Shown here one piece after another: positions 42,088 through 58,754 of a DNA stretch of 64,000 bases. Source of the DNA: a virus (lineage: Duplodnaviria; Caudoviricetes); IMG/VR virus record IMGVR_UViG_3300017917_002782, positions 1,022 to 65,021 of that record; one strand, written 5' to 3'. Under the pieces are notes generated by a model. It ran no database searches. It had not been told where the DNA came from and saw only the letters and a program-made list of their open reading frames with translations. The stretch's first letter is position 1; each line of letters opens with the position of its first letter. Both the position numbers and the translations under genes were made by a program.

Positions 42088-42507
42088 TGGTGGAGCCGGA
42101 GGGATTCGAACCCTCGTGTTGTTCGTTTTATTGTAGATGGACTACACGTTTATTCGATTATTCACAACCGACAAATAAATGGTTCCTATTTTGACATCGT
42201 TACCAATAACTGTGTCGGGTTCACTTTTACCATTTTCATGGGTTTATAGGTAGTTCCCTGAACGAGACCTTTGTTTCTTTTCGGGTAGAAACCACACCAT
42301 AGAGACTTCTGTTCCAAGGTACATGTCCGCCGACCCGTTAGTCACCACCGATTAGGCAGCAACTTTAGAAGTTGCAAGTAAACCTGCTACTTCCATGTTG
42401 TTGTAAACGTTGCCGTTTAAAATTCACCACCATGGATTAAAGTCTTAGATGACATCAGACTACGTGCCCATTTACACTAACAACGCCAATCAATTCCATT
42501 CGACCCC
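42088..42507 (-). ncRNA. ssrA: tmRNA, tag (A)GNVYNNMEVAGLLATSKVAA
   Basis: 5' GGGGTCG...3' GGTTCGAATCCC...GGCTCCACCA with G3-U70; internal ORF ending ...VAA-TAA; smpB nearby. Confidence 0.93.
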
Positions 42508-42543
42508 ATATTTTAAAGAACTGTTACAAATATAAATACAAGT

Positions 42544-43284
42544 TTACATATCCACAAGCTCAATTGTTAATTTTTTATCTATTTCTTTCACATCCAATAC
42601 AATTGGTTCATTAATTGGGTGATATCTTTCGGTACAAGTGGATGCATTAACAAATGCGGTATCATTTATTAACATTGAACCATACGCTCCGTGAATGTGA
42701 CCAAAAACATGTAATAAAAGATTCATATTATCCACACGTTGTCTCAAAAGTTCACAACCTACATTTTGATTACCAAACATGGTAAAATCTCTTATTAAAT
42801 GTGGTGGACCATGAGTAATAAGAATGTCGGTATCATCTGGGATTTGATCCCATTTTTCTTTTAGTTCGTTTCCATTTCTTGGTAGATTAAACGCCCAATT
42901 ATAAAACTCTGGTTGCCACGGACTACCATATATTTTTAATGGTCTTGAAATGTCTGGGTGTTTGTATGTAAATTCACTATCATGTAAATAAACAACATCT
43001 GATTGTGATAAATTTTCTTCGTTCAATATATGATGTAACCATGGTGCTTCATTATGATGTCTAATACCATTATAATTTTCAAAACCAAAATCATGATTAC
43101 CGGCAATAAAAATTTTACAATCAAATCCTTTTATGTTTTGAAACCATTGAACAAATTCAATTATTTCTTTTTCTTTACCAACGTTTGTACAATCACCTGA
43201 ATGTAATAACAAATCACCTTCAGGTAGTTTATGTAACATCCCCTTATGTAGTGAATGTGTGTCGGAAATACATACTATTCTCAT
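42544..43284 (-). CDS. calcineurin-like metallophosphoesterase (MPPED-like)
   Basis: SDTH, GD, GNHD, THGPP, GHIH. Confidence 0.9.
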   Translation of the reverse strand: MRIVCISDTHSLHKGMLHKLPEGDLLLHSGDCTNVGKEKEIIEFVQWFQNIKGFDCKIFIAGNHDFGFENYNGIRHHNEAPWLHHILNEENLSQSDVVYLHDSEFTYKHPDISRPLKIYGSPWQPEFYNWAFNLPRNGNELKEKWDQIPDDTDILITHGPPHLIRDFTMFGNQNVGCELLRQRVDNMNLLLHVFGHIHGAYGSMLINDTAFVNASTCTERYHPINEPIVLDVKEIDKKLTIELVDM

Positions 43285-43394
43285 ATCAGTAATATAGTTA
43301 ATCTAATTAAATAAAAAAAGGAGAACCGGAGTTCTCCTTTAGGGGCTTGACCGGAGTCTACCTTCCACCACTTGGTTTGGACAAACCAAGAAAA

Positions 43395-43841
43395 CTATTT
43401 CACATCCAAAAGTTTAGAAATTGCTTCTAACTCCATTTGTGCTTTTAACTCTGGTGAGATAAGAGCATTTAAACGAGCTTCGATTTCCGCAAGTTCTTTA
43501 CGTTTTTCTTGGATAGAAATTTGGTTTACACGAGTTTGGAAATCTTCTTTCCACTCTTCAACCATAAAACCTAACCATGTGAATTTGTAATCCACACCAA
43601 GTTCATTAGCAGCAGCCTCTGATTTATCTTTTCTTTCCATTAAGAAAGCATACATCTCAACCAATTTACGAACATCAGTAATCGTTGCGATTGATGTTCT
43701 GTCATGTGCTGAGTTTGCGGAATAACCAAAGTTACCACTTGTTTTCCAACAAGGTCTTTCTGCTTTTTCAATTGCTAATTTTTTGTTTTGTACTAAGTCA
43801 AATAACTCTTTAACTTTAGCATCTGTTGTTTTTGTTGCCAT
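43395..43841 (-). CDS. hypothetical helical protein, last gene of the ROT-TerD/ncRNA operon
   Basis: ORF followed by terminator ~43313-43340. Confidence 0.75.
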   Translation of the reverse strand: MATKTTDAKVKELFDLVQNKKLAIEKAERPCWKTSGNFGYSANSAHDRTSIATITDVRKLVEMYAFLMERKDKSEAAANELGVDYKFTWLGFMVEEWKEDFQTRVNQISIQEKRKELAEIEARLNALISPELKAQMELEAISKLLDVK

Positions 43842-43900
43842 AATAAATGTTGTTTTTTTTTGTTGTTAATTATGTTGTTTATTTTTTCCCAGATGGGAAA

Positions 43901-44026
43901 TGGCGGGGAGGGTGGGATTCGAACACCACGACCACGAGGTTAACAGCCTAAGAAGTAACTTAGCTTATAGCCGTATGTACAGAAATTAAACCAGTAATAC
44001 GTGCTCTACCACTGAGCTACCTACCC
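43901..44026 (-). ncRNA. tRNA-Asn(GTT)-like RNA with a 50-nt structured insert in the anticodon stem
   Basis: acceptor GGGTAGG/CCTCCCC-G-CCA, D arm GCTC/GAGC, CG[insert 43950-43999]AGG-CTGTTAA-CCTCG, T loop TTCGAAT. Confidence 0.8.
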
Positions 44027-44031
44027 GAGTA

Positions 44032-44655
44032 TACTGGAAATTGAACGAGTGAGTTTTTGCTTTGTTTTTGTTTTTTAGAAGTAACTCTCATATGTTTCAA
44101 TATACCATGAAACATACAACTCATAGCCAGTAAAAGATTTTAAAGATGGTAATTATTTGTCTATAATAAAACCCCTTTTGAGGGTTCTATAGGATTCGAA
44201 CCTATTAAACCAATTAGAAGTAAGACAAAATGTAGCCATCAAATATTTTGATATTTAAAGAACTAAAGTAAATGGAAATCGTGTCAGTGATGTTTCAGTA
44301 AAAGTGAATAGAAGTAACTGAACACATAGCCATTAGTATTTTTTAAAGTGGAGATTCCATAACTAATTCAATTTTCAGGTTTGATAGAAGTAAGTGTATG
44401 GATAGCCACTTAATAAGGTAGACGGAAAGGATATGAGTAATAAACATCCAATTGTTGATAGAAGTAACTACATACATAGCCGTCAATAAGTTTATGTGGA
44501 GATTGTGTGTCTAACGTTGTATCTGATAGTTGTATGTTAGAAGTAAGACTTTTGCACCAATACTTTTGTCAATTCTAAGACCCAAAACAGAACCACTCCG
44601 TGGTTTGATGTGATGGGTGGTTGACTATCCTCTCAGTGACTCACATAGCCACATA
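44032..44655 (-). ncRNA. array of six Y-RNA-like structured units (44032-44132, 44145-44240, 44271-44334, 44346-44411, 44421-44484, 44493-44655)
   Basis: each unit: closing stem ending GG-CTA(T/C), second stem, invariant TTACTTCT, variable loop, then CC; stem sequences differ but pairing is kept. Confidence 0.8.
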
Positions 44656-44681
44656 TAATATTTCAAAGAACTGATGGGTAA

Positions 44682-46754
44682 TTACACACCCATCAATTTT
44701 CCTGTCTCTTCATAAGAGTAACAGAAGTCCTCGTACTTGAAGAATGTATCAACATTCTCGTCAAGAGTAACTTGTTTACCACGACCTTCTACGTGTAGAA
44801 GAACAAGGTCATAAACACTTACCTTTGGTAACTCAGCGTATTGTTGAATTACTTTAATAGTGTTTTTGAAGTCACTTCTTGCGGTTACGAAACCACTTGA
44901 ATCAATGTCCAACATGATGTACTCTTTAGTTTCCAAATCAATAATTGCGATTAACGTATTGGTTGATTTAGATTCCAATGATTGACAATTTGAAATTGTC
45001 TCAGGTAACCATGTCCTGTTTGATTCAGGGTGTTCTCTCTCCATGATACCGAAAGATGTTTCAAGTGTATCCAAACCACGACCATTGAAGTTTCTCACGT
45101 CAATAACCGCATATTTGTAACCACTCTTCAACGCATCTTGGATATCGATGTCGATGTACTCAGCACAAGGTCCTCTTCTGTGTCTCACATCACCTGAGTG
45201 AACTGATTTACCTACTTTCAAGTTACTGAAAGAAAGTACATCACTTTTTTTCTCACCAACAAAGGTAACACTTAAATCCAAGTCTTCAGAACCTCTTTCG
45301 TCCATCCAATGAACAAATGGTCTAATAACTTTTGCATCAGGGTTATCGAGTGGAACTCTTTGACCTCTGATTGTTGGTTTAGTTGAGAAGTTCATACTTC
45401 TCATGTTGGTTGGTAAAGGAATCTTTTTCAACTCCTCATCAATCCAACAGTTACCCAAAGAATCCATTACTGAAAACTTATCTCTAAGTGTTTCAAATAA
45501 TTTAGAGTGGATTGTTTCCACAATCTCTTTAGGAATTGCTGGTAGATTAGGTAATTCAGTACGTTTTCTTGCCCCTTTAATCATAATTGACCTATTTGTT
45601 TTAGGTTCAGTACGACCTTCGAAGTGTGAGTAAACTTCAAACAATACCTTGTTTGATGTACCTTTTACCGCCTCACCGAAGTATTTCATGATAAGTTCAA
45701 TATCTTTTGGATATGTACGAACCAACCAATCCATTCTTCTTGAGAATTCACCTGGTTTTTGAGATAAAACCCTCAAACCATTCTCCAAACCTTTTTTGAA
45801 TGATTCGTTAAGTAACCCATACCAAGAAGTAACCTTCTCGTTACGAATCTTATTGAACGATTCATAAGATTTAGGGAATAATTTCTTATATTCGCCTGGA
45901 TGTAAAATTTCACCCAAACGAACCCATCTTTGGTCTCTTAAAACCATTTCGCGAGTATCGCAATTGGTTTGTTCAAGTAAACCTAAGATGTATTTTCTTT
46001 CTTTACGAGAGAATTTTTTAAATTTGAATTTCTCTCTTTCAGGGTTTGTACCTTTTGTAGATGACCATCTGTTTAATCTAATTTCCTTTTCAGGAACTTT
46101 AGGTAAAGAGATATCACCACCCGAAAGATGAACCGCAATTCTTAACACATCGGTTGTGGTTTTAACTGGTAACCCTTCAATACCCATTGCTGCCAATGTA
46201 CACAAATTTTCTTTGAATGGAATTGTTCCAGGAAAAACAAGTTTATCACCACTTGATACGAACCACTTAACAATCTCAAGATCTTGAGGTGTTAATGAAG
46301 TGTTGATTGACACCAAATCAGTGAAGATTTTTGAAAACCTCTCTGATGTGCCATACTTAATCAAATTGTATTTGATTTTTTCGAACTTAATATCCTTTTC
46401 GTATGTATGGGTTGATGGTTCCCATTGACCATTACTCCAATAGTGCATGATTGCGTTCATGTACAATTCGAAGTCTGACATCACCATAACTTCTTGTGGG
46501 AAGTTTTTATATAATGGTTGGTAATTGCGTTTTCCGCCCATTACATTTTTCAAATGATTCAGAACTTCATCATTGAAGTTTTGGATAAACGATAAATCTG
46601 CTTTGGATAATTCGAAGAAGGCATCTTCGTCTAACATGTATCCCCATTGCATTAAGTGGGATTGTACTGTTGCTACTGCAATTCTGTTGTCCATACCATC
46701 GTTTGGAGGACATACCAAACCTTTTTGAAAGGATACTAAATTTCTTGTTGTCAT
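44682..46754 (-). CDS. helical (ROT/TROVE-like) + C-terminal TerD-like domain protein
   Basis: QPLYKNFP, TTTDVLR, LGEILHPGEY, PGEFSR; TerD-like HW...DLDLS...HSGD...AEYIDID. Confidence 0.75.
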   Translation of the reverse strand: MTTRNLVSFQKGLVCPPNDGMDNRIAVATVQSHLMQWGYMLDEDAFFELSKADLSFIQNFNDEVLNHLKNVMGGKRNYQPLYKNFPQEVMVMSDFELYMNAIMHYWSNGQWEPSTHTYEKDIKFEKIKYNLIKYGTSERFSKIFTDLVSINTSLTPQDLEIVKWFVSSGDKLVFPGTIPFKENLCTLAAMGIEGLPVKTTTDVLRIAVHLSGGDISLPKVPEKEIRLNRWSSTKGTNPEREKFKFKKFSRKERKYILGLLEQTNCDTREMVLRDQRWVRLGEILHPGEYKKLFPKSYESFNKIRNEKVTSWYGLLNESFKKGLENGLRVLSQKPGEFSRRMDWLVRTYPKDIELIMKYFGEAVKGTSNKVLFEVYSHFEGRTEPKTNRSIMIKGARKRTELPNLPAIPKEIVETIHSKLFETLRDKFSVMDSLGNCWIDEELKKIPLPTNMRSMNFSTKPTIRGQRVPLDNPDAKVIRPFVHWMDERGSEDLDLSVTFVGEKKSDVLSFSNLKVGKSVHSGDVRHRRGPCAEYIDIDIQDALKSGYKYAVIDVRNFNGRGLDTLETSFGIMEREHPESNRTWLPETISNCQSLESKSTNTLIAIIDLETKEYIMLDIDSSGFVTARSDFKNTIKVIQQYAELPKVSVYDLVLLHVEGRGKQVTLDENVDTFFKYEDFCYSYEETGKLMGV

Positions 46755-46859
46755 AAATGTTGTATTAAAATGTTTTATTAATGTTGTGGTACAAATATAC
46801 TAAACTTTTTTTAAATGTCAAGTTTTTTTTTATTTTTTTTTAAAAAGGTTCTGAATCGT

Positions 46860-47364
46860 CCCCACGCCATTTTGGGAGAACCTTTCAAGTTTTAGTAGTT
46901 TGGCGATATAGTATCCCTACCTATATTCCCAAGATTCGTTGGAACATAGTAACCATCCAAGGTAGGTCTCTTGTACTTTGGTCCGTCTGTCATCATACCC
47001 ATCCACCTTACGGCTTCTACACAGGTACTCTTTTCACCATTTCCTCAGGACATCTTCACCCTACCCCCAAAGTTACGTGGTGAGTCTCACTCGGAAGCTG
47101 AGTGTGTATTGTAGAATTGTCCAGTATTTCTACAACTTGTGGATTCTATTACGACTAATTAAAGCCCCTTACCCCCTCAATCCATAATGGGGAACTCTTT
47201 TTTAAAGTTTCCAACATACCTGACGGAACTTCCCCATCGTCAGTAAACCCCGTTTATTAGAGGTTATATGAATTTCACTTTTTGTGTATCCTCCCCCATA
47301 GCCTTGAAGACTTCAAGTCAGGTTCACACACCATAACGGACGAGTACCTCCGTTAATCGTGGGG
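46860..47364 (-). ncRNA. ~500-nt ORF-free structured RNA candidate
   Basis: GC-richer than its surroundings, many hairpins, ends CCCCACG/CGTGGGG complementary; directly follows a tRNA. Confidence 0.55.
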
Positions 47365-47368
47365 TCTT

Positions 47369-47443
47369 TGGTGGCTCCGGCGGGAATCGAACCCGCGACT
47401 ACCAGTTTTAGAGACCATAATGTTACCATTACACTACGGAGCC
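47369..47443 (-). tRNA. amber suppressor tRNA (anticodon CTA)
   Basis: GGCTCCG/CGGAGCC-A-CCA; loop CT-CTA-AA; T arm GCGGG-TTCGATT-CCCGC; weak anticodon stem. Confidence 0.8.
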
Positions 47444-47448
47444 ATTCG

Positions 47449-47519
47449 AGGTCGGGGATGGATTCAAACCACCCTAAAAGAGCTTGCGACTCTTCACCTA
47501 ATCGCTCGGTCACCCGACC
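47449..47519 (-). tRNA. degenerate tRNA-Cys(GCA)
   Basis: GGTCGGG/CCCGACC-T; loop TC-GCA-AG; T loop TTTGAAT (non-canonical). Confidence 0.55.
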
Positions 47520-47572
47520 ATTTGTGATTGATAACCTTAATCATCAATCACAGGTACAATATTAGAGATTAG

Positions 47573-47926
47573 TTACAACATCTCCAAATTATTTTGAAGA
47601 TTTTTTTCATAATCTTCTTTTTTGGTTTTTTTCTTAGGTGTATAACCCCTCTTAACTCTTTCTTTTTGAACTCTTTTCTTTAGACTTCTGTCTTGAAAAT
47701 AATTCCTCAATTCTTGAGAAGATTCTTCGTAGATCTTTTTAATTTCATCAAAAAGTTTTGCCTTATCTTCATCAGTTAATTTGGTTTTTCTTTTTTCTCT
47801 AACACAATCCCACCATTCTCTTGAATAGCGTTTGTGTTCGATGCATTCACCTAATAGTTTATGAATCTTGTTCGAGAAAGATGATTTAATCATCATTGTT
47901 GGGTTGTGTTGTGTTGTCTTTTTCAT
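47573..47926 (-). CDS. basic hypothetical protein
   Basis: ORF in the amber operon. Confidence 0.65.
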   Translation of the reverse strand: MKKTTQHNPTMMIKSSFSNKIHKLLGECIEHKRYSREWWDCVREKRKTKLTDEDKAKLFDEIKKIYEESSQELRNYFQDRSLKKRVQKERVKRGYTPKKKTKKEDYEKNLQNNLEML

Positions 47927-47928
47927 TT

Positions 47929-48183
47929 TTAAAAAATTTTAGCTGTTATTATGTTATTATTTTCCTCAATCTCCAAATTTGCTTTGAATTTTATACTCCC
48001 TTTGGTATGAGGATTATCAGGAGTTTCTTTTGTTGAGAATCCCACACCCGGTGAGACATCAACGTGATGAACATAATAAGTGTCGCCCCGACATTTCACA
48101 ACCCACATAGGAATTGTCGGATCTTCCAAGTGTTTTTTGTTAAAGTGAAAAACGATTTCACATTTTTTGTTAATCTACTTCAT
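47929..48183 (-). CDS. hypothetical protein with in-frame TAG at codon 3
   Basis: ATG AAG TAG ATT AAC AAA... in frame with track ORF 47929..48129 (MK*INKKCEIVFHFNKKHLEDPTIPMW...). Confidence 0.7.
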
Positions 48184-48188
48184 GATTT

Positions 48189-48542
48189 TTAAAGATTAAA
48201 TTGTTTATTATATTCCTTTAGAGATAAAGGCAATGATGATGTTAATTTTCTCGTTTCTTCAGTTTCGAGAAAACAAATAGAAGTTAATTGATTCCCAATA
48301 TCGGGTTCAATAAAATAAGACACGGGTATTCCGAGTTCTTCTATTCTATAAAGTAATTTTTGTAATTTTTCTTTTGAATCAATGGATAAAGAAATAAGAA
48401 AATTATTATTCCATTGTTTTGAAAGTTCGGGATGTTCTAAAATGAACTGAGATATTGCATGTCCCGATTGTGCAATTTGATACCCGGGATTTAAGTCTTT
48501 TCGGGTTACGACTATTAGTTTGTTAATCTATAAATTTTTCAT
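48189..48542 (-). CDS. Pth2-like peptidyl-tRNA hydrolase with in-frame TAG at codon 5 (missing from ORF track)
   Basis: MKNL*INKLIVVTRKDLNPGYQIAQSGHA...FIEPDIGNQLTSICF...LTSSLPL; Pth2-like R.DL..G...AQ..HA motif. Confidence 0.8.
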
Positions 48543-48594
48543 AACTATAAATATTGTGTTACAAAGATAAATATTTTTATTTAAAAAACAATCT

Positions 48595-49029
48595 TTAAAT
48601 AAAATTTTTTATTTCTCTTTCAATTTCCCTTTTTTTGATAGTCTCTCTTTTATCGAATTCTTTTTTACCCTTCACCAATGCAACCTCAACTTTAATGAAT
48701 CCCCTTTCACTTAAAAAAATACGATAAGGTATAATCGAGTATCCTTTAATTAAATCGTTTTTTAATTTCAAGAGTTCACGTTTTTTAAGTAATAGTTTTC
48801 TATCTCTGTTGGGTTCGTGTGAGTATGGTGAACCATCACTATTAATATTAATTCCTTTAACAAATAATTCGGTACCATTAAAGAAACAAAAAGAATCGGT
48901 CATAGATGCATTTCCGTTTCTAATTGATTTAACCTCACTACCGGTTAATTTAATACCAGAAATTTCGGTTCGAATAAATGAATACTCGAACCTAGATTTC
49001 CTGTTAACAATTTCAATTTTAGATTTCAT
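48595..49029 (-). CDS. smpB: SsrA-binding protein SmpB
   Basis: NRKSRFEY, GIKLTGSEVKSIR, RKLLLKKRE, KGKKEFDKRE. Confidence 0.95.
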   Translation of the reverse strand: MKSKIEIVNRKSRFEYSFIRTEISGIKLTGSEVKSIRNGNASMTDSFCFFNGTELFVKGININSDGSPYSHEPNRDRKLLLKKRELLKLKNDLIKGYSIIPYRIFLSERGFIKVEVALVKGKKEFDKRETIKKREIEREIKNFI

Positions 49030-49490
49030 TAGATTCTTACTAAGTGATTTGCTCCATAGGTTATCATTGCACCATTGTGTTTGTATCTAACCTTATAACC
49101 CATACCTTCAACCAAACCAACAGCTTGTCTAAGTGCTTTGTTTGATTTGTAACGAGGGTCTGGATTTAAGTCAATATCAATCCACGTTGTTTTTGGTAAA
49201 CCACTATTTTTTAATAGTTCGGCAACCTCAACCGCTTTCCAAACTTCGTTGATAAGTCTTGTTGAAAGGTCTCTCTCCATTTGAGTCGATTCTTTAGTAC
49301 AAAGTACGTGTGCACCTTTTCCTTTCGTGTAAAGTGCTATAACCACACCATAAACGGTTTTACTATTATTATAACATTGAGAATCAGATCCAATTAGAAT
49401 CTCAACATCCTCTTTGTCCGTTAAGTAATTTTTGATGTATTCAACTACATCAGGTATGATTTTTCCATACAATGTTTTAAATGTTCTCAT
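49029..49490 (-). CDS. RNase H-like YkuK family protein
   Basis: ILIGSDSQ, RLINEV, IDIDLN...KSN. Confidence 0.8.
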   Translation of the reverse strand: MRTFKTLYGKIIPDVVEYIKNYLTDKEDVEILIGSDSQCYNNSKTVYGVVIALYTKGKGAHVLCTKESTQMERDLSTRLINEVWKAVEVAELLKNSGLPKTTWIDIDLNPDPRYKSNKALRQAVGLVEGMGYKVRYKHNGAMITYGANHLVRI

Positions 49491-49537
49491 AACAAGTTTC
49501 CTTTCTACATAACTATCTATTTTTTTTAATTTATGTT

Positions 49538-49626
49538 TGGCGGAGAGAGAGGGGCTCGAACCCTCGCGGCTGTAACACCCTATCAGTTTAGCAAACTGAC
49601 CCCTTCACCAACTTGGGTATCTCTCC
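49538..49626 (-). tRNA. tRNA-Ser(GCT)
   Basis: cloverleaf, long variable arm, encoded CCA. Confidence 0.92.
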
Positions 49627-51043: not shown

Positions 51044-51055
51044 ATTTATTTTTTG

Positions 51056-51135
51056 TACCTCGGGTCGGACTCGAACCGACACGTCTCTCGACACGGTTTC
51101 TAAGACCGCTGTGTATACCATTCCACCACCAAGGC
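51056..51135 (-). tRNA. tRNA-Leu(TAG)
   Basis: cloverleaf, loop CT-TAG-AA. Confidence 0.9.
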
Positions 51136-51226
51136 AAATTGTGGGACATCGCTTAACCCACAGTGATTGTACTTCTCACTTTTGACGTTACCATATTTTT
51201 ATATGTTGGCATCTAACGATTTTTTG

Positions 51227-51298
51227 CTCCCCGGGGGAATTTCGAAATCCCGACCCCATGATTAACAGTCATGTGCTCTGCCTCTGAGCTACCGAGGA
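51227..51298 (-). tRNA. tRNA-Asn(GTT)
   Basis: cloverleaf, loop CT-GTT-AA. Confidence 0.9.
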
Positions 51299-51646
51299 AG
51301 TTTGTGTGTCTTCCCACACCTCCAGATTGTTCCCCTCACCACTCTAATTTCTTAGTGTAGGAATCGAACCTACATGGGCGACTTACCGTAACCTCAATCA
51401 ACGAGTGGACTCGAACCACATTCGTAGTTGGGAGAGGATTCGAACCCCTTCAGGGAGCTACCCGTCATCCATGACCTTCCATCGGACTCGAACCGACCTT
51501 CTACCATAGCCCAACTATTTTCACTTTCCATTACAAAGTGTAAGTAGGTTTAGTTGCGAACTTTCCTTTCAGTGGGACTCTCATGGTTTTTCGTAGAGTC
51601 TGTTATCCCACAATTTTAACACATTGACTACATGTGTTGAGCATCG

Positions 51647-51743
51647 CAGTTAGAACAGGAATCGAACCTGCGTCTTAGTTACTTTGTTTTAACTGTAATT
51701 CTACAAAACATTTCACTACGTGGTGCCACTCCACTATCCAACT
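51647..51743 (-). ncRNA. tRNA-like RNA with expanded anticodon arm
   Basis: acceptor AGTTGGA/TCTAACT and T arm GCAGG-TTCGATT-CCTGT; no 7-nt anticodon loop. Confidence 0.55.
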
Positions 51744-51947
51744 ATTTCGGGACGAGAGTAAGCTGCTCTCATTTGTCCCTACTTTTTTCTATCGTTTGAG
51801 TTTCAATTTAAGGTCTGGAAACTCCTTCGGTAAGGAAAGAGACCACAGTTTTCTGGTAAACTTACAAAAACCCCAAATTGCTTACATTGTTACTTTAACG
51901 TCTCAACAATCAAACTCATTCGGAAGAACTCGAAAAAAGACGGCTTG

Positions 51948-52062
51948 CCGACTAAAAAGGGTTTGAACCTTAATCCTGCATCCCCTTTCAGAACCGGCGA
52001 AAGCGTAATGCTTTTCGTATTCTTACTCCGTTCTGCTGTGCCACCTATTACACCATAGTCAA
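51948..52062 (-). ncRNA. tRNA-like RNA with expanded anticodon arm
   Basis: acceptor TTGACTA/TAGTCGG, D arm, CAGAAC...GTTCTG arm, T loop TTCAAAC. Confidence 0.5.
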
Positions 52063-52112
52063 TCGAGAGTTTCGAACCTCTCAGGTGCCGAGTTAATTAC
52101 TCTCGGACTTTG

Positions 52113-52187
52113 TAGAGTATGCGAGACTCGAACTCACACGATGTCTTCATCCCAAATGAAGCGGCTTACCAATTAGCCCAATACTCT
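52113..52187 (-). tRNA. tRNA-Pro(TGG)
   Basis: cloverleaf, loop TT-TGG-GA. Confidence 0.88.
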
Positions 52188-52192
52188 ATGAA

Positions 52193-52328
52193 AAGATAGT
52201 GATGGGATACCCGTCTCGTCCCAATCTTAATTGCTTCCTGAGTTTTAATGAGGCCTCAGCAAAGGGTGCTGAATTCCGATTCCACTCTGGATTGTCGACA
52301 TCCAGTGAGTGGGGAAAACCACTATCTT
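52193..52328 (-). ncRNA. structured RNA between tRNAs
   Basis: closing stem AAGATAGTG/CACTATCTT around several hairpins. Confidence 0.5.
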
Positions 52329-52330
52329 AG

Positions 52331-52404
52331 TACCCCCAACAGGATTCGAACCTGTGGCCCACAGTTTAGAAAACTGTTGCTCTATCCAGCTGAGCTATGG
52401 AGGC
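52331..52404 (-). tRNA. tRNA-Arg(TCT)
   Basis: cloverleaf, loop TT-TCT-AA. Confidence 0.92.
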
Positions 52405-52409
52405 ATTTG

Positions 52410-52494
52410 TGCTCGAGGCGGGAATCGAACCCGCACGGATGTTGAGTCCACAGAATTTTAAGTCCTGCGTGTCTACCAGTTCCACCACCCGAGC
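52410..52494 (-). tRNA. tRNA-Leu(TAA)
   Basis: cloverleaf, loop CT-TAA-AA. Confidence 0.92.
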
Positions 52495-52546
52495 AATTTT
52501 TTTACCAATATGTCAAAGAACACAACAAATATAAATCAAAAGGTTT

Positions 52547-52585
52547 AAAAAACAAAAAACCCGAACATTTTATTGTCCGGGTTTC
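52547..52585 (-). terminator. attenuator terminator of tRNA operon 1
   Basis: AAACCCGGACA/TGTTCGGGTTT stem followed by a U tract. Confidence 0.8.
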
Positions 52586-52611
52586 TTTTATAAGTTTTTA
52601 TAATTTTTGAC

Positions 52612-52716
52612 TTACACTTTTTCGAAATCCGAACATGGATGACATAAATATATACCTCTCCCATTGCCACTAAGTGGGTTGTTTGACGGTTGTTGTATGT
52701 TTACCAAATTTTTCAT
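52612..52716 (-). CDS. leader peptide 1 MKNLVNIQQPSNNPLSGNGRGIYLCHPCSDFEKV
   Basis: lies between promoter (TATCTTTG at 52738-52745) and terminator; carries antiterminator segment 52624-52635. Confidence 0.75.
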   Translation of the reverse strand: MKNLVNIQQPSNNPLSGNGRGIYLCHPCSDFEKV

Positions 52717-52796
52717 TCGTTTTTCAAATAAGTATCACAAAGATACGAAAAGTTTTTAAAATATCAAACTTTTTTTTAAAATATTTTTATTTTTTG

Positions 52797-52868
52797 TAGC
52801 CCCTACGGGAATCGAACCCGTCTTTTCAGGATGAAAACCTGATGTCCTAACCGATAGACGAAAGGGCC
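52797..52868 (-). tRNA. tRNA-Glu(TTC)
   Basis: cloverleaf, loop TT-TTC-AT. Confidence 0.9.
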
Positions 52869-52904
52869 ATTTAACAATTATTGGTCTTTAACTTTATTTA
52901 TGTC

Positions 52905-53210
52905 TTAGGAGTGTAAAACTTCCTTTTGACTATTTTTTATTTTGTTTTCCAATTTATCTAATCGAGAGTCTAATTGGGAAAAGACCTCTCTTTCTGTGTT
53001 ATCAATCCTTCGATTTACATCATCATGGTTATGATTAATTAAATCATAGATTTCTTTTTTTATGTTATCCAATTCATTGGATAGATTATTTTGAAAAGAT
53101 TCTAAGTTCTTTTCCACTTTTCCTACCTTGACGTATCCAACCACAGCCAGTATTGCAATTACAACACCAACCACAGAAGACACCCCTAAAATAAATGATA
53201 ATGTTTCCAT
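52905..53210 (-). CDS. TM + coiled-coil protein
   Basis: start moved to METLSF; the upstream part of the track ORF is tRNA-Ser. Confidence 0.7.
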   Translation of the reverse strand: METLSFILGVSSVVGVVIAILAVVGYVKVGKVEKNLESFQNNLSNELDNIKKEIYDLINHNHDDVNRRIDNTEREVFSQLDSRLDKLENKIKNSQKEVLHS

Positions 53211-53257
53211 AATTTTAAAGTTGTTTTTAAATTTGTCAAAGAACAATAATTGTTTTG

Positions 53258-53340
53258 CGGAGGATGAGGGAATCGAACCCCCAAGGCTTTTACACCCAGC
53301 TGATTTCAAGTCAGTGTCCTCGTCCATTCGGGCACCCTCC
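53258..53340 (-). tRNA. tRNA-Ser(TGA)
   Basis: loop CT-TGA-AA, long variable arm. Confidence 0.88.
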
Positions 53341-53352
53341 TTTATTTTTTTG

Positions 53353-53486
53353 TGGTTAGGACAGGAGTTGAACCTGTATCACCGGATTAGTATACTTACG
53401 GCATTCGTCCTCAGTTATCTATTTTACAAGTCACCTCACAGGACTAAGCGTCTTCCCGAACAAATATGTTCTTCCGCCACCTAACC
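53353..53486 (-). ncRNA. tRNA-like RNA with D-loop hairpin and large anticodon-arm insert
   Basis: acceptor GGTTAGG/CCTAACC, TTAGT...ACTAA stem, T arm ACAGG-TTCAACT-CCTGT. Confidence 0.6.
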
Positions 53487-53713
53487 AAAATTTGCCCCAC
53501 ATTGAGATTCGTGTGAGGACTAGATTGCGTCGGTTTCTTTCACTGTTTCAAGAACCTGTTGCATCTCTGCGTTTAAACCCGTCAACCCAACGTTGGAGGA
53601 ACTGGATATTGAACCTTTATCCCAACGACCCCCTCTTTAAGTTACGGAGGAGACAACTATATCATTTGATCACCAAAACGATACCAAATGGTCTGAGTAT
53701 CTCTTACTCATTG

Positions 53714-53786
53714 CAGTCCCAACGGGAGTTGAACCCGCTCCATACTCCGTGACAGGGAGATATCTTAACCGTTTGACCTTGGGACT
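53714..53786 (-). tRNA. tRNA-Asp(GTC)
   Basis: loop CT-GTC-AC. Confidence 0.85.
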
Positions 53787-53793
53787 GTATGTG

Positions 53794-53878
53794 AGCCTCC
53801 TGACGGATTCGAACCGCCGATGTTCTTTCGATTCCTGATTACAAATCAGGTGCTCTCGACCAACTAAGCGAAGGAGGC
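53794..53878 (-). tRNA. tRNA-Thr(TGT), long variable region
   Basis: loop TT-TGT-AA. Confidence 0.85.
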
Positions 53879-53885
53879 TTATTTG

Positions 53886-53958
<73 letters not shown>

Positions 53959-54013
53959 ATGTTATATCCAAATATAGATAAAATATTTTAAAGAACAAAA
54001 TGTTTTTTAAAAG

Positions 54014-54087
54014 TTGCGGGGGAGGGAATCGAACCCTCGTCATTCAGCTTATGAGACTGAGCTGGTACCTCTCCAGTCCACCCCGCA
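54014..54087 (-). tRNA. tRNA-Met(CAT)
   Basis: loop CT-CAT-AA, lacks GGG/CCC. Confidence 0.82.
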
Positions 54088-54092
54088 ATATT

Positions 54093-54169
54093 TGGTTGGA
54101 ACAATAGGAATCGAACCTATAACCTTTCGCGTATCAGACGAATGCTCTAACCAATTGAGCTATATTCCA
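54093..54169 (-). tRNA. tRNA-Ile(GAT)
   Basis: loop CT-GAT-AC, CCA. Confidence 0.9.
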
Positions 54170-54262
54170 ATAAGAGTCCCGTTTGCAATTTTTCAATTAC
54201 TTCATAAGGGTTTAGTTTCATTCATCCATCACGGGACCACGAGGAGAACTAATTCCTTACTT

Positions 54263-54338
54263 TGGGTGACCGAGGAGGTTCGAACTCCCGACCCTCTGAA
54301 CCACAATCAGGTACTCTACCAACTGAGCTACAGCCACC
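54263..54338 (-). tRNA. tRNA-His(GTG)
   Basis: loop TT-GTG-GT, G-1. Confidence 0.9.
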
Positions 54339-54394
54339 ATATTATAAGGTCTGAGACTTATAATTGTCAATTATAAGGTTATAACCTTATATTG

Positions 54395-54477
54395 AGCTCA
54401 TGGACGGATTTGAACCGCCGTGGACCTAAGTCAATGGTTTTGCAGACCACTCCATTCAACCACTCTGGCACATGAGC
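54395..54477 (-). tRNA. tRNA-Cys(GCA), long variable arm
   Basis: loop CT-GCA-AA, U73. Confidence 0.85.
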
Positions 54478-54482
54478 ATTTG

Positions 54483-54555
54483 TAGTTCCTAAAGGATTCG
54501 AACCCTTATCAAATCATCCGTAGTGATTTATTCTATCCAATTAAACTAAGGAACC
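54483..54555 (-). tRNA. tRNA-Arg(ACG)
   Basis: loop CT-ACG-GA. Confidence 0.88.
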
Positions 54556-54558
54556 ATC

Positions 54559-54990
54559 TTATTTTTGTATGTTATCCCAATCTTCTTGTGTGCCCAACTT
54601 AATTGGTACAAACAATGCAAACCCATCATCATCTTCAAAGTGGTTACATTCATCTTCTCTCCAACCAAATTTGTATCTCATGTATTCAAATTTGTTTTCT
54701 TTTTGATTCCATCGAGCAATGGTTGTTCTTCTATGTTCACCAATATAAATTTGACCATCAATCAAATCTTTTTTTGGTATTGCACCAGCCTTAATAAGTT
54801 TTGGTACATAGAACTCTTTCCACTCTTTTTCATCCACCACCGGTAGTTGAGGAACATCTTCTGGATTATTGAATTTTGGTAATTCATTTTCCCAATATTC
54901 TTTAATCTTTTTCAATTTTTCTTCTTTCATCTTCATTTTCTCCGCCTCAAACTTCATTTTGGCGGCATCCAATCCTATTTGATTATTCAT
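54559..54990 (-). CDS. hypothetical protein inside tRNA operon
   Basis: 143-aa ORF between tRNAs. Confidence 0.7.
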   Translation of the reverse strand: MNNQIGLDAAKMKFEAEKMKMKEEKLKKIKEYWENELPKFNNPEDVPQLPVVDEKEWKEFYVPKLIKAGAIPKKDLIDGQIYIGEHRRTTIARWNQKENKFEYMRYKFGWREDECNHFEDDDGFALFVPIKLGTQEDWDNIQK

Positions 54991-55006
54991 AATTTTGTTT
55001 TTTAGT

Positions 55007-55093
55007 TGGCACGGACGGTAGGATTCGAACCCACGATGAACTTTCGTTCCCGGTTTTGGAGACCGTTGCCTTTAACCACTCGGCCACGTCCGT
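55007..55093 (-). tRNA. tRNA-Trp(CCA), long variable arm
   Basis: loop CT-CCA-AA, GAAC-GAAA-GTTC arm, G73-CCA. Confidence 0.85.
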
Positions 55094-55102
55094 GTATTTT
55101 TG

Positions 55103-55178
55103 TAGTTCCTATTGGAGTCGAACCAATGATCTTCACTTTGTAAGAGTGACGCTTTAAAACCAACTAAGCGAAGGAACT
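55103..55178 (-). tRNA. tRNA-Val(TAC)
   Basis: loop CT-TAC-AA. Confidence 0.88.
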
Positions 55179-55185
55179 ATCTTTG

Positions 55186-55259
55186 CACCGCCTGGGGGAC
55201 TCGAACCCCGACCTTCTGAGTGACAGTCAGATATACCAAACCATTATACGACAGACGGT
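55186..55259 (-). tRNA. tRNA-Asp(GTC)
   Basis: loop CT-GTC-AC, slightly atypical acceptor/T junction. Confidence 0.78.
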
Positions 55260-55267
55260 GTTTATTG

Positions 55268-55352
55268 TGACCCCGGTGGGACTCGAACCCACGACTCCCA
55301 CATTAAAAGTGTGGTACTCTAAGCTTACGCAAACCAACTGAGTTACGGAGTC
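55268..55352 (-). tRNA. tRNA-Lys(TTT) with D-loop insertion
   Basis: loop CT-TTT-AA; D loop carries an extra GC-GTAA-GC. Confidence 0.85.
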
Positions 55353-55359
55353 ATAAAAA

Positions 55360-55435
55360 TGGTGGTGACGAGTGGAGTCGAACCACTATCATCGGATTTT
55401 CAGTCCGTTGCATAGACCACCTTTGCTACGTCACC
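55360..55435 (-). tRNA. tRNA-Phe(GAA)
   Basis: loop CT-GAA-AA, CCA. Confidence 0.9.
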
Positions 55436-55467
55436 AAGTTAAACCAATATGTCAAAGAACCTATTTG

Positions 55468-55538
55468 TGGAATATTTGGGATTCGAACCCATACCTCCCG
55501 CCGTCTAGCGGTTGCACATCCTTATGTGCTTTTATCCC
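55468..55538 (-). pseudogene. tRNA-like element with no readable anticodon
   Basis: D and T arms present, G3-U70 pair, anticodon loop shortened (CCGC-TAGACG-GCGG). Confidence 0.55.
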
Positions 55539-55543
55539 TTTTG

Positions 55544-55616
55544 TGGACCGTCCGGGACTTGAACCCGGGACTGAAGCTTGCAAAGCTACCGTGTTAGCCA
55601 ACTATACCAACAGCCC
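55544..55616 (-). tRNA. tRNA-Ala(TGC)
   Basis: loop TT-TGC-AA, G3-U70. Confidence 0.9.
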
Positions 55617-56535: not shown

Positions 56536-56865
56536 TCAGTCATTAACCCCAATTTTTTGGTATAATGCATGAATTTCTCCACAAGTTTCATAATCTTCTA
56601 TCGACTCAAAATATGGTAGAACTTCTTTATACAAAACAATAACATTCTCTCTTGAGAACTTTAAATCGGCTTCCCAATGAAGCCCGTTAATTTTAGCAGA
56701 AAGGACAAGGATTAGATTATTCTTGTCCTTTCTTTTTAAACTCTTAAATAAAGAAAAAATATTTTGATATATTAGTGTTTTATTTTCATTATAAAAACTA
56801 TTATAATCTTTGTATTCTTCTCCTACTCTTAGTTTTTTTATGATGGTATCTTTTGGTTTTTTCAT
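56536..56865 (-). CDS. hypothetical protein (UVR-like EDYETC motif)
   Basis: ORF translationally coupled to upstream gene. Confidence 0.65.
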   Translation of the reverse strand: MKKPKDTIIKKLRVGEEYKDYNSFYNENKTLIYQNIFSLFKSLKRKDKNNLILVLSAKINGLHWEADLKFSRENVIVLYKEVLPYFESIEDYETCGEIHALYQKIGVND

Positions 56866-57275
56866 TATACCGTATGTTCAATTTGGACCCTAACACAGTT
56901 TTGTGGTAAACGATTTATGTGTCTATAATTATTAATATAACCCATCATATTTGCACTACCAATTGCATTGGCAGAATGAACCACAACATCAACCACGGGT
57001 TTGCCGTCCATCCATTGTTCCACCAACCATTTAGTACAATCCATACCTGTTTTTTCGGTAATGTTATCGTAATTCAATTCATAATTATGATATACGTTCT
57101 TATGCCATTCCGCCATTGCAGAATCACCTAAATCGTGGTCCAATGATATTAGAGATATGTTCTCTAAACCAATTTCATTAATTGTATTTACGAACTCATC
57201 GTAATTTCTAACTATAACCCATTGGTCTTTTTCAACAGGTGTTCTCACATCATCTAAATAAATTCTTGTTTTCAT
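56865..57275 (-). CDS. cyclic-phosphate-processing receiver-domain protein
   Basis: IYLDDVR, ISLDHDLG, TG.D...WL, VHSAN; start moved to MKTRIY. Confidence 0.8.
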   Translation of the reverse strand: MKTRIYLDDVRTPVEKDQWVIVRNYDEFVNTINEIGLENISLISLDHDLGDSAMAEWHKNVYHNYELNYDNITEKTGMDCTKWLVEQWMDGKPVVDVVVHSANAIGSANMMGYINNYRHINRLPQNCVRVQIEHTV

Positions 57276-57291
57276 TGTATAATTTTTTTTA

Positions 57292-58359
57292 CTAATTCTC
57301 TTCATTTCTTTTAAATGGTTTTGAGTATGGTGGATAAAGTAATTTCCAAATTTGTTCCGAATAATCTCTACCATCCAACATATTAAATAATAAATTAGGG
57401 TGCTTATATCTTTTCGCATATTCTGCAAAAACTCTTCTCTCTTTAATCCCCGGTGATCTGTTTATTATTTTGAATATCCATTTGTATTCATTCTCAATAG
57501 TGTTGTATTGTACGATTAAATTTTCTTTTGTTTCTTTTACCCAGTCATAAAACTCGTCTGGGACCTTATCTAGAATTTCATCCATAGGTTTACCATCTTT
57601 CAAATACTCCCAAATATCCCTATTAGATATGTTGGTTAATATTCGATGTAATCTAACATATTCATCACCCTTGATTTTCATTCTAAAACCATTTTTAAAA
57701 CGAATTACATAACCTTCTTTATCGTTTGATATTTCTTCTTTTAGTATATCAAACCCCTCACCCCATGTTTTGTATAAAGTAACGACTTTGAATCCTACGT
57801 TATTAATCATGTTGTTTAAACGAATATCTTCGTTGTAATCATTGTGAATGTTAACTTCATTACCGCTTTCCGTATGAATCACACCTAATAAAATCAAATC
57901 CTCAAAATCATAAACGCACACAATTCTATTCTCAGGATAAATGATTTCAAACAGGTAAGTATAGTCAGTATGTAACCGGTTGTAATGATACTTCTCAAGT
58001 AATTGACGACCTTTGATTGATTGTTCGGAAGTGAATGAACCACGGGTTGCCATTACCCATTCACCATTGTAATTAAACAATATACCTAACGAACCATCTA
58101 ATTTTTCATAAACATCAAAATATTCGTTTGGAATTTCTTCTGGTTTATGTTCTTCATAATTAAAGAATTTTTTGAATGGTCTTGCGATAACCTTACCTTG
58201 ACTATTGGTCACTAATCCACGACATTGCATGGTGATATCATCCCACAATCTTTCATATTGAACTTTTGGTGAATAATTCCAAATGGTTAAATCGAGAGTT
58301 AGATGAGTTTGTTTGTGTAACAAACCATCATTATGGTATTTTTCTAATACTTCTATCAT
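57292..58359 (-). CDS. T4 Rnl1-like RNA ligase
   Basis: CRGL, RPF.KFFN, EKLDGSL, ATRGSF, FEII, EGYV, KIK. Confidence 0.9.
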   Translation of the reverse strand: MIEVLEKYHNDGLLHKQTHLTLDLTIWNYSPKVQYERLWDDITMQCRGLVTNSQGKVIARPFKKFFNYEEHKPEEIPNEYFDVYEKLDGSLGILFNYNGEWVMATRGSFTSEQSIKGRQLLEKYHYNRLHTDYTYLFEIIYPENRIVCVYDFEDLILLGVIHTESGNEVNIHNDYNEDIRLNNMINNVGFKVVTLYKTWGEGFDILKEEISNDKEGYVIRFKNGFRMKIKGDEYVRLHRILTNISNRDIWEYLKDGKPMDEILDKVPDEFYDWVKETKENLIVQYNTIENEYKWIFKIINRSPGIKERRVFAEYAKRYKHPNLLFNMLDGRDYSEQIWKLLYPPYSKPFKRNEEN

Positions 58360-58754
58360 AGACTTACCTCGAAACGGGTTTTCATTTGTTCTAACTTATC
58401 TTCAGGTACACCATGTTCATTCACCCCACCATGTCTGTTTTCAACTATCAATGAATATACTCTATAACCATATTGTTTGGCTAACTCATAGTAAGCATCC
58501 ATTTCCCATTCTTGAGTGAATGTGTTTGATACAACTACAGGCGAATGCTCATACTTCATAGCAAATTCAATTTCCTCACGACACCAGTTATGAGCCTCTT
58601 TTAATTTAGTTGGGTTAAACTTGTAGTTACCATCGGAATCTACAAAGTACATATCAGCCTCTTTATGACAATAATCCTTATCACCAACTAGCATTTTGGC
58701 TAATGTTGATTTACCCGAACCAGGTAATCCTCTTAATAATATTAATTCTTTCAT
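58356..58754 (-). CDS. P-loop polynucleotide-kinase-like protein (AAA_33)
   Basis: RGLPGSGKST, EAD.YF, VSNTF, HGVP. Confidence 0.85.
   Translation of the reverse strand: MKELILLRGLPGSGKSTLAKMLVGDKDYCHKEADMYFVDSDGNYKFNPTKLKEAHNWCREEIEFAMKYEHSPVVVSNTFTQEWEMDAYYELAKQYGYRVYSLIVENRHGGVNEHGVPEDKLEQMKTRFEVSL

Follow-up and report, generated by a model that had tools for sequence, protein, structure and literature searches.

On one strand of a jumbo-phage DNA window (64,000 nucleotides; bases 1022-65021 of the 65,021-bp IMG/VR virus record IMGVR_UViG_3300017917_002782), genes for translation, ribosome rescue and RNA repair extend over 17 kb around a bank of tRNAs, and one gene of the region, encoding a 690-residue protein that we call p690, is followed by an array of hairpin RNAs. 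A reading made from the sequence alone had described the region as a single integrated island. We consider it fairly probable, taken jointly with the mechanism and the ribonucleoprotein particle proposed below, that several cassettes, each inherited on its own, make up the region as a mosaic around a tRNA bank of variable size, with tight sub-blocks and no co-inherited unit. Within this mosaic, the hairpin RNA is strictly associated with the p690 protein family.

The arrangement was compared across related loci from two starting points. With the Rnl1-family RNA ligase of the window as probe, 80 of 238 related viral loci were fetched (58-87% identity, with 10 kb on either side) and searched with 22 window proteins. 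Beside the ligase we found a polynucleotide-kinase-like gene in 79 of the 80 loci, a ClpC-like AAA+ gene in 71, a KTSC gene and a nucleotidyltransferase-like open reading frame (ORF) in 70 each, the gene for a 109-residue protein (p109) in 69, a cyclic-phosphate-processing receiver domain (cREC) gene in 63, p189 in 42 and a YkuK-type RNase H-like gene in one. SmpB, the Pth2-like gene, p690 and the metallophosphoesterase (MPE) were found in none of the 80 loci within 10 kb of the ligase. Among the 35 loci having at least 9 kb of downstream sequence, any downstream tRNA was seen in seven (3-9 tRNAs each) and a tmRNA in none. Four larger records (74-100% complete) were also searched whole; SmpB and p690 were present only in G001, our closest large relative (310,691 bp, 93% complete), and were absent from G002 (74% complete), G003 (95%) and G004 (100%).

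With p690 as probe, 23 viral loci were fetched at 74-96% identity. All 23 held p690, the RNA array and p148 together, with p148 always following the array, and the MPE gene followed p148 in 22. Other parts were variable: YkuK was found in 16 of the 23, SmpB in eight and a detectable tmRNA in seven, while the Pth2-like gene, p66, p117 and a tRNA with anticodon CUA (tRNA-CUA) occurred in six, always jointly. The full order was retained just in close relatives, namely G001 and the 23 p690 loci. G001 is collinear with the window across G001's contig ends, though it has 5 kb extra after p109 and is without Pth2, p66, p117 and tRNA-CUA. A compact version of about 10 kb was seen in six p690 loci, five of them near-identical (L092-L094, L096, and L109), in the order ClpC, kinase, (Rnl1), cREC, p109, four tRNAs, YkuK, p690, array, p148, and MPE. 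Conserved linkage, on which the integrated island had been made to depend, gave a mixed outcome: it holds for the order in G001 and the 23 p690 loci and for the kinase-Rnl1-cREC genes, but the cassettes behave independently of one another and the parts named above show 0/80 linkage to the ligase. From the two comparisons we read the region as tight sub-blocks in variable surroundings, with no unit inherited whole. The kinase-Rnl1-cREC-p109 block is the conserved core of this phage clade.

We then examined the DNA around p690 (44682-46754; coordinates refer to the minus strand unless stated otherwise). A sigma-70-like promoter (11/12 positions) precedes the gene, and the 840 nt of non-coding DNA between it and p148 hold seven hairpin modules within 780 nt of p690. 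Five modules stand in tandem at 44033-44484 (M6 44033-44131, M5 44145-44240, M4 44271-44334, M3 44347-44410, and M2 44421-44484) and match the covariance model R2, described below, at E values of 3.7e-15 to 4.4e-3. Module 7 lies within a tRNA-like RNA (43904-44026; Rfam tRNA 32.4 bits, with the insert visible in the alignment), which has an acceptor stem, a D arm, and a T arm and whose 3' end, G-CCA, is encoded; in place of the anticodon arm there is a 63-nt insert, which carries the module (GGCUAU...UUACUUCU). The same chimera was found in L088, L089, L097, and L103, and in the locus L111 from a Puia metagenome-assembled genome (MAG; 9680-9801, 60.8 bits). M1, with approximate limits of 44495-44660, is weakly supported by a partial R2 match only (44509-44549, E 0.64); its GGCUAUG half lies near 44650 and its UUACUUCU half at 44539-44546, with an insert of about 95 nt between them. 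The gap from p690 to the array is free of terminator-like sites, save a small hairpin within M1 (44591-44605) that scores as one.

By folding, the modules share a common hairpin. Its lower stem, P1, ends in G-G/C-C pairs and opens into an internal loop with CUA(U) on the 5' side and NUUU on the 3' side; above this, P2 is a variable, covarying helix of about 8 bp. An invariant U-A pair closes the apical loop, which starts with UUACUUCU. The apical part of M5 carries a T-arm-like GGUUCGAAUCC hairpin, and those of M6 and M1 carry long inserts. In DNA letters, the coding strand of the p690-p148 gap has seven copies of the loop box TTACTTCT within 600 nt, the 64 kb as a whole has 12, against 3.25 expected, and GGCTA followed 5-35 nt on by TTACTTCT occurs five times against 0.03 expected. 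For an alignment of units (A4), we used constrained folding, in which GG had to pair while CUA and the loop box had to stay single-stranded. This gave 66 distinct units; once eight with a different fold and any shorter than 55 or longer than 85 nt had been dropped, 50 remained, and 39 were aligned once 11 near-duplicates had been left out. RNAalifold recovered both P1 and P2 from A4, with compensatory changes in 10 of 13 pairs. Across the 13 base pairs, 90.9% of cells were paired, compared with 66.1% in shuffled alignments (0/500 reached the observed value) and 33-53% with slid partners. Pair 16-77 was UA in 19 units, CG in eight, GC in six, GU in three, AU in two, and UG in one, and was broken in none. 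In A7, a model-fitted alignment of 85 matches, 93.9% of cells were paired compared with 57.3% when shuffled. Rfam gave no match to the array at E <= 1 apart from tRNA (43280-48600), and there was no match to the Y_RNA or YrlA models.

The p690 family is large, with 2,394 cluster representatives at E <= 1e-3, of which the named ones are all "hypothetical"; the nearest NCBIfam model is the MXAN_6230/SCO0854 family. Members occur in Firmicutes, Planctomycetota, Armatimonadota, Acidobacteriota, Melainabacteria, Bacteroidota, and phages. We fetched 80 of 168 bacterial loci with p690 homologues (27-59% identity; 1.015 Mb), from sources including Paenibacillus, Priestia, Brevibacillus, Planctomycetota, Armatimonadota, Acidobacteriota, Melainabacteria, and Bacteroidota. 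A covariance model based on units of the phage type and on the bacterial units nearest to them (R1) gave 69 matches at E <= 1 in these loci, every one on the strand of the gene. The model rebuilt from 85 matches (R2) gave 138 matches at E <= 0.1, in 76 of the 80 loci, and again all 138 were on the gene's strand. The loci with no R2 match were L140, L148, L175, and L177, of which L148 and L177 begin at the gene, so that their upstream DNA is missing. Neither R1 nor R2 had a single match in a 1.38-Mb control consisting of the 80 Rnl1 phage loci without p690. These data show that the RNA is strictly associated with the p690 protein family.

One to several RNA copies are encoded within about 1.7 kb of the p690-family gene and on its strand. 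Most bacterial copies stand one to four in tandem, no more than about 350 nt upstream of the gene; copies lie just downstream of it in L111, L112, L113, L152, L178, and L187, and L124 and an Obscuribacterales group have one copy 0.9-1.4 kb upstream. In the Paenibacillus and Priestia examples viewed, the bacterial copies are plain hairpins, and the loop box of Firmicutes reads UUCCUUCU instead of UUACUUCU. The 3' stem of the last copy in Paenibacillus L163 (5687-5923) abuts a GGAG before the ATG, and in Priestia L133 (5698-5850) a terminator-like hairpin lies between motif and gene. Outside one group of close relatives, no protein neighbour is conserved next to the bacterial homologues, and Rfam at gathering thresholds gave only tRNAs, on 10 of the 80 bacterial loci. 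Viral contigs were also scanned with an exact pattern. Among the matches listed, most were single and were taken as chance, and six of 80 loci passed R1; four of these six records hold a p690 homologue and the other two (6% and 16% complete) showed none. One of the pattern-scan records was an unrelated 57.6-kb virus with the RNA 30 nt upstream of its p690 homologue. Separately, a p690 homologue (51% identity) and three hairpin RNAs are present in L112 (9601-10314), a contig of 16.5 kb that had been binned into a Deltaproteobacteria MAG; its tRNA cluster includes a tRNA with anticodon UUA (ochre-suppressor type), and the contig looks like phage DNA in a MAG. In contigs from RNA libraries (lake metatranscriptomes), the p690 coding sequence was covered in 4/4 runs and the array was touched in one, by a single 273-nt contig of a relative.

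The phage itself is known from a fragment. CheckV put the record at 21% completeness, from which a genome size near 300 kb follows, and the DNA runs that contain the stretch come from freshwater, lake, pond, and aquaculture metagenomes. We take the region to be an accessory region for translation maintenance in a jumbo phage from fresh water, with a genome of about 310 kb. No near-identical phage was found in GenBank, where matches were only tRNA-sized, and the GC content of the window is 33%. Genome-wide recoding of TAG, TGA, or TAA was considered by re-calling ORFs with each stop as sense and was rejected, as genes did not merge coherently; TAG terminates eight of the 64 long ORFs of the window.

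The conserved core of the region consists of p109 (56536-56865), cREC (56865-57275; PF20274 E 1.8e-22, 80.2 bits against a cut-off of 27; phrog_1479), the Rnl1-family ligase (57292-58359; PF09511 E 9e-20, 71.9 bits, cut-off 28.3), and the P-loop kinase (58356-58754; AAA_33 E 2.6e-14), with p109 kept beside cREC and a 4-nt overlap between the kinase and ligase genes. Rnl1 nucleotidyltransferase motifs are the KxDG lysine, the EG of motif IV, and the KxK of motif V; by eye, without a T4 alignment, EKLDGS, KEGYVIRF, and RMKIKGDEY of the translation match them. Against TIGR02308 the ligase scored 90 bits, compared with the 242-bit equivalog cut-off, so that it is a member of the Rnl1 family without being an equivalog of T4 RnlA. 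The kinase has the P-loop GLPGSGKST. T4 Pnkp is a kinase-phosphatase fusion, whereas the kinase here stands alone: profile matches over its 132 residues gave only a kinase domain and no HAD 3'-phosphatase domain. It would work like the kinase half of Pnkp without being a Pnkp itself. By family membership, kinase, Rnl1, and cREC together may work like T4 Pnkp plus Rnl1, the pair that counters PrrC. In the passages of Iyer et al. 2021 (PMC7824862) that concern it, the cRec domain is defined and phage operons that link it to RNA ligases are described. Compared with the T4 pair and these jumbo-phage operons taken together, the points in common are an Rnl1 ligase adjoining a P-loop kinase and a predicted cREC domain; the block differs in including the conserved p109.

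ARAGORN found 28 tRNAs at 47369-55616, covering all 20 amino acids and the anticodon CUA. The bank proper (49538-55616; ARAGORN, Rfam) holds 26 of them, with small ORFs in between (p181, 50401-50946; a membrane ORF, 52905-53327; p143, 54559-54990), and between the ligase block and YkuK its size ranges among relatives from four to more than 25 tRNAs. A further tRNA (53714-53786; Rfam 52.2 bits) was missed by ARAGORN, which, when run with introns, reported a 98-nt tRNA-Tyr-like gene near 51646-51743, in an ORF-free stretch. Long, class II-like extra arms were observed in a tRNA-Trp (55007-55093, 87 nt), a tRNA-Thr (53793-53878, 86 nt), and one tRNA-Cys (54394-54477, 84 nt), the G001 counterparts of which measure 73, 77, and 71 nt.

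Next to the bank lie the YkuK-type gene (49029-49490; PF04308 E 1.7e-18) and SmpB (48595-49029; PF01668 E 8.8e-43, 146 bits), and at the far end of the region is the tmRNA (42088-42507; ARAGORN, with the tag GNVYNNMEVAGLLATSKVAA; Rfam RF00023 70.2 bits, gathering score 47). The tag ends in VAA and is identical in the relatives L090 and L101. Adjoining the tmRNA on the plus strand are two large ORFs of 414 and 688 residues (38597-41911) with no Pfam family, whose counterparts occupy the same place in G001 and other relatives at just 27-38% identity. Beside ClpC (59190-61211), the conserved neighbouring block beyond the kinase includes, on the plus strand, KTSC (61899-62174) and the nucleotidyltransferase-like ORF (62171-62941).

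The tRNAs and translation factors could be ordinary translational supply, serving codon usage or late synthesis after host shut-off, and not counter-defence. The low GC of the phage, the complete set of 20 specificities, and the wide variation in bank size all suit such a role, and Al-Shayeb et al. 2020 (PMC7162821), in the sections relevant here, treats such genes mainly as redirecting or sustaining translation. Supply leaves the ligase-kinase-cREC operon unexplained, however, as the only known kind of substrate for these enzymes is broken RNA, and as a full account we regard it as possible but on the unlikely side. Supply and counter-defence are compatible roles.

The Pth2-like gene (48189-48542) proved to be a qualified case. 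The sequence-only reading had listed it among the parts of the island, and it does match PF01981, but at 24.4 bits against a cut-off of 23, over profile positions 2-81 of 115, and its frame has no ordinary start. It reads ATG AAA AAT TTA TAG ATT AAC AAA and is open only past the TAG at codon 5 (48528-48542). The neighbouring p66 (47929-48183) starts similarly, with ATG AAG TAG ATT AAC AAA (48175-48183); neither p66 nor p117 (47573-47926) has a Pfam, PHROG, or NCBIfam family. In the five loci with Pth2 orthologues that we examined (L088, L091, L097, L105, and L107), the pattern ATG...TAG ATT is retained, although the codons between ATG and TAG vary in sequence and in number (two or three). The amber-suppressor tRNA-CUA (47369-47443; ARAGORN; Rfam 59.4 bits), which has an encoded CCA end, and the Pth2-like gene never occur without each other, in six of six p690 loci having either. 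Probably, the suppressor tRNA lets ribosomes read past the early amber codon in Pth2 and p66. The alternative, a mini-ORF of three to five codons followed by a restart at ATT, is compatible with the in-frame arrangement, which alone does not separate the two; we favour suppression because of the strict linkage between Pth2 and tRNA-CUA.

Stop-codon-recoded phages with suppressor tRNAs are said to have been described by Ivanova and colleagues in 2014 and by Borges and colleagues in 2022. The present phage resembles them in combining a phage tRNA-CUA with in-frame TAG, but the window shows no genome-wide TAG recoding and the leader TAG is confined to two adjacent genes. PTH2, tRNA banks, and tmRNA-SmpB are also reported from huge and jumbo phages, with the same proposed roles, in the sections of PMC7162821 and Iyer et al. 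2021 covering these genes; the difference here is the conserved early in-frame TAG of Pth2 and its constant linkage to tRNA-CUA. The anticodon arm of tRNA-CUA (GGUCU-CUAAA-ACUGG) is close to that of the window's tRNA-Trp (GGUCU-CCAAA-ACCGG), from which, judging by the sequences, it may derive. A 540-nt non-coding insert (46830-47368; GC 39% vs 33%) separates tRNA-CUA from the p690 promoter. Relatives lack it, with a gap of about 90 nt there, except for its last ~90 nt adjoining p690; Rfam at E <= 10 gave only tRNA and noise, and its fold was no better than shuffles (z -1.36).

To return to p690 and its RNA, the resemblance to Ro/Y-RNA particles lies in the predicted structure and in the arrangement. 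The AlphaFold2 model of the whole protein was confident (predicted local distance difference test, pLDDT, 93.7; predicted template modelling score, pTM, 0.89). Residues 139-455, in a helical-repeat N-terminal part of Ro60/TROVE-like fold, had the three Ro60 entries as best structural matches; among the Ro60 systems that we set beside p690 is that of Thermus phage phiLo (PDB 9l5y). The C-terminal part, at about residues 473-639, is predicted to adopt a TerD beta-sandwich fold, with no vWA domain. Rows below the TerD entries in a Foldseek search with whole p690 were of low probability and were taken as chance. Our reading of the model is that p690 would have a Ro60-like ring architecture, through very distant homology or convergence, with TerD replacing vWA; by sequence it stands outside the TROVE family. 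Compared with the TerD family (tellurite resistance, Ca-binding; PDB 2qz7, 2kxt, and 3ibz), the domain is here fused to a 470-residue helical domain, and p690 lies outside any ter operon and, among bacteria, lacks neighbouring proteins that are conserved.

The gene rsr, for the bacterial Ro60, sits beside rtcBA, and p690 in the phage likewise adjoins RNA-repair genes. YrlA has the reverse arrangement to that of our chimera, in which the tRNA-like part holds the RNA ends and the module takes the anticodon position. The tRNA-like domain of Y RNA and YrlA is shared by some modules only (the 43904-44026 chimera and the T-arm-like hairpin of M5). As set out in the available portions of Chen et al. 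2014 (PMC4201824), rsr and Y RNAs typically lie on the same strand within 4 kb, with several RNAs and tRNA-like domains; the p690 array and the bacterial loci similarly show several copies on the same strand at no more than 4 kb. The same portions of that paper place the Ro-binding motif GNCGAAN0-1G in the long stem of Y RNA. The RNA described here has a conserved GG-CUA / UUU-CC internal loop and a UUACUUCU loop of its own, and its conserved GGCUA / UUUCC / UUACUUCU positions differ from that motif, which was not itself searched for. By analogy, p690 would bind the adjacent hairpin RNAs as a Ro/Y-RNA-like particle. We propose, tentatively and as a possibility that stops short of probable, that the p690 family and its hairpin RNA represent a second class of Ro/Y-RNA-like ribonucleoprotein, and a widespread one, in which a ring of Ro60-like fold carries a ligand-binding TerD domain and no vWA, and that in jumbo phages the RNA was multiplied into arrays joined to tRNA-like handles and the particle recruited, beside an end-healing phosphoesterase and tmRNA, for RNA surveillance or repair during infection. 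A search of the open literature, which did not extend to subscription journals and supplementary files, turned up no account of the p690 family or of its RNA; TROVE and TerD appeared together only as unconnected terms in titles and in the text of Iyer et al. 2021 (PMC7824862) available to the search, and matches on structured RNAs, motifs, or riboswitches did not mention TerD.

Several observations weigh against this interpretation. The sequence-only reading had named a Ro-like ribonucleoprotein, evidently meaning p690 and the non-coding stretch after it, and while the fold of p690 and its adjoining array do resemble the Ro arrangement, the TROVE profile matched nothing in the record at a threshold as loose as E <= 1. 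Within the p690 family, Pfam TROVE matched 0 of 49 members and the TerD profile two of 49. A comparison of p690 with a TROVE alignment by hhalign (23 sequences, low diversity) gave a probability of 0.11%, a sequence search against the PDB had no match, and Foldseek with the N-terminal model returned nothing at E <= 0.001, residues 1-465 modelled alone (42-sequence alignment) having reached a pLDDT of 81.9, that is, moderate confidence. The likeness to Ro appears confined to fold and arrangement. On the RNA side, A4 units were delimited by constrained folding, so that P1, though not P2, is partly paired by construction, and A7 was fitted to its model. Contigs from RNA libraries show neither ends nor strand and DNA carry-over is possible, so their coverage does not prove that the array is transcribed or processed. 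Many of the 23 viral and 80 bacterial p690 loci are close relatives, and independent cases are fewer than the counts. For the repair block, the mechanism would rest on family membership, with the enzymatic activity of cREC being a published prediction (Iyer et al. 2021, PMC7824862, in the part dealing with this domain). Finally, the bacterial copies of the RNA lie mostly immediately upstream of the gene, which fits a cis-regulatory leader equally well as a partner RNA.

Such a leader could be a riboswitch or a p690 autorepression site, with no stable partner RNA, and the phage arrays would then be duplicated leaders, perhaps regulating the downstream p148 and MPE. In favour of it are the upstream position of one to four copies, in the gene's orientation, at most of the 76 matched bacterial loci, the GGAG at the end of the L163 copy, and the terminator-like hairpin of L133, and the Firmicutes loop UUCCUUCU could pair with purine-rich ribosome-binding sites. 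Nonetheless, the 23 phage loci and six bacterial ones have their copies downstream of the gene, up to seven copies in a row would be unusual for a leader, and the T-arm-like fusions and the full tRNA-like scaffold with its encoded CCA point to processed, stable RNAs. We consider the leader reading unlikely as a complete explanation. It is compatible with a partner RNA, as one protein can bind both its own leader and a partner RNA.

With the partner-RNA proposal, a mechanism for the cassettes can be outlined. After cleavage by an anticodon nuclease leaves 2',3'-cyclic phosphate and 5'-OH ends, cREC, perhaps with the distant MPE, would open or remove the phosphate, the kinase would phosphorylate the 5' end, and Rnl1 would seal the break, as their families suggest. 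The MPE (42544-43284; calcineurin-like, 246 residues; PF00149 E 3.2e-13, PF12850 E 1.6e-10) is a candidate end-healing enzyme for 3'-phosphates or 2',3'-cyclic phosphates. The tRNA cassette would substitute for damaged or scarce host tRNAs; YkuK, SmpB, and tmRNA would release stalled ribosomes; and in the cassette of Pth2, p66, p117, and tRNA-CUA, the suppressor tRNA would read the early amber codon. In the cassette of p690, array, p148, and MPE, a p690 ring with a Ro60-like fold and TerD in place of vWA would bind the hairpin RNAs. The array would be transcribed as the 3' part of the p690 transcript and cut out, and its tRNA-like parts would allow tRNA-type processing. By analogy with Ro and Y RNA, the particle may act on damaged or misfolded RNA, near an end-healing phosphoesterase and the tmRNA. 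The 148-residue p148 (43395-43841; phrog_2574 E 7.4e-14) belongs to a family of unknown function. An Atlas look-up gave only viral hypothetical proteins for it, plus an Nmad5 lead at 0.77, which is below the reliable range. A terminator-like site (43317-43340) follows the gene and a promoter-like site (43840-43869) precedes it.

The sequence-only reading had instead seen a layered counter-defence (sense, replace, repair, rescue, decoy), selected as one unit against translation-targeting immunity. Its listed parts are indeed present, with profile, ARAGORN, or Rfam matches for tmRNA, SmpB, MPE, Rnl1, the kinase, cREC, YkuK, tRNAs for 20 amino acids, ClpC, and KTSC, and these families hold and fit tRNA replacement, RNA end-healing and sealing, and ribosome rescue. 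The parts also have a common theme and run along the same strand for 17 kb, their order is retained in G001, and a compact form exists in six p690 loci. A layered counter-defence is plausible and already published in its general form: in passages of Iyer et al. 2021 (PMC7824862), tRNAs, Rnl1/Rnl2/RtcB, PNK, cRec, calcineurin-like phosphatases, PTH2, and KTSC are presented as jumbo-phage answers to attack on translation, and ROT/TROVE proteins with a tRNA-like partner are noted in jumbo phages; tmRNA and SmpB in huge phages are described in the relevant part of Al-Shayeb et al. 2020 (PMC7162821). What does not stand is the single integrated unit, which we judge decidedly unlikely. The cassettes vary independently in the 23 p690 loci, the 0/80 result for SmpB, Pth2, p690, and MPE holds at the Rnl1 loci, three of four larger relatives are without SmpB and p690, and shared orientation is common in phage genome arms. 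Nor does anything indicate a sensor or decoy function for any gene, so that nothing supports assigning the "sense" and "decoy" roles to particular ones. It is highly improbable that the GGCTA...TTACTTCT units are instead DNA sites (promoters, iterons, or operators) for a DNA-binding p690, as short conserved boxes repeated every 75-140 bp beside the gene might suggest, given that their variable stretches covary as two helices (pair 16-77 being broken in none), pairing drops to 33-53% with slid partners, inserts of 30-95 nt between boxes are tolerated as hairpins, and 138/138 bacterial matches are on the gene's strand.

As first described, the island is one more jumbo-phage example of the published picture. 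The new part is the pair of p690 and its hairpin RNA, with the amber-gated Pth2 cassette ranking second; if real, the latter would be a compact case of a phage translation factor depending on its own suppressor tRNA. To our knowledge, bacteria have no other ribonucleoprotein of the same kind as Ro/Y-RNA particles, whose function is understood only in part. If the proposal is true, a second family, similar in fold and unrelated in sequence, would offer a genetically tractable entry, as Priestia megaterium and Paenibacillus carry p690 homologues, and the p690 RNA would enlarge the set of known structured-RNA families. The significance of the pair follows from the conservation of the RNA in 76 of 80 bacterial loci and its amplification in phages.

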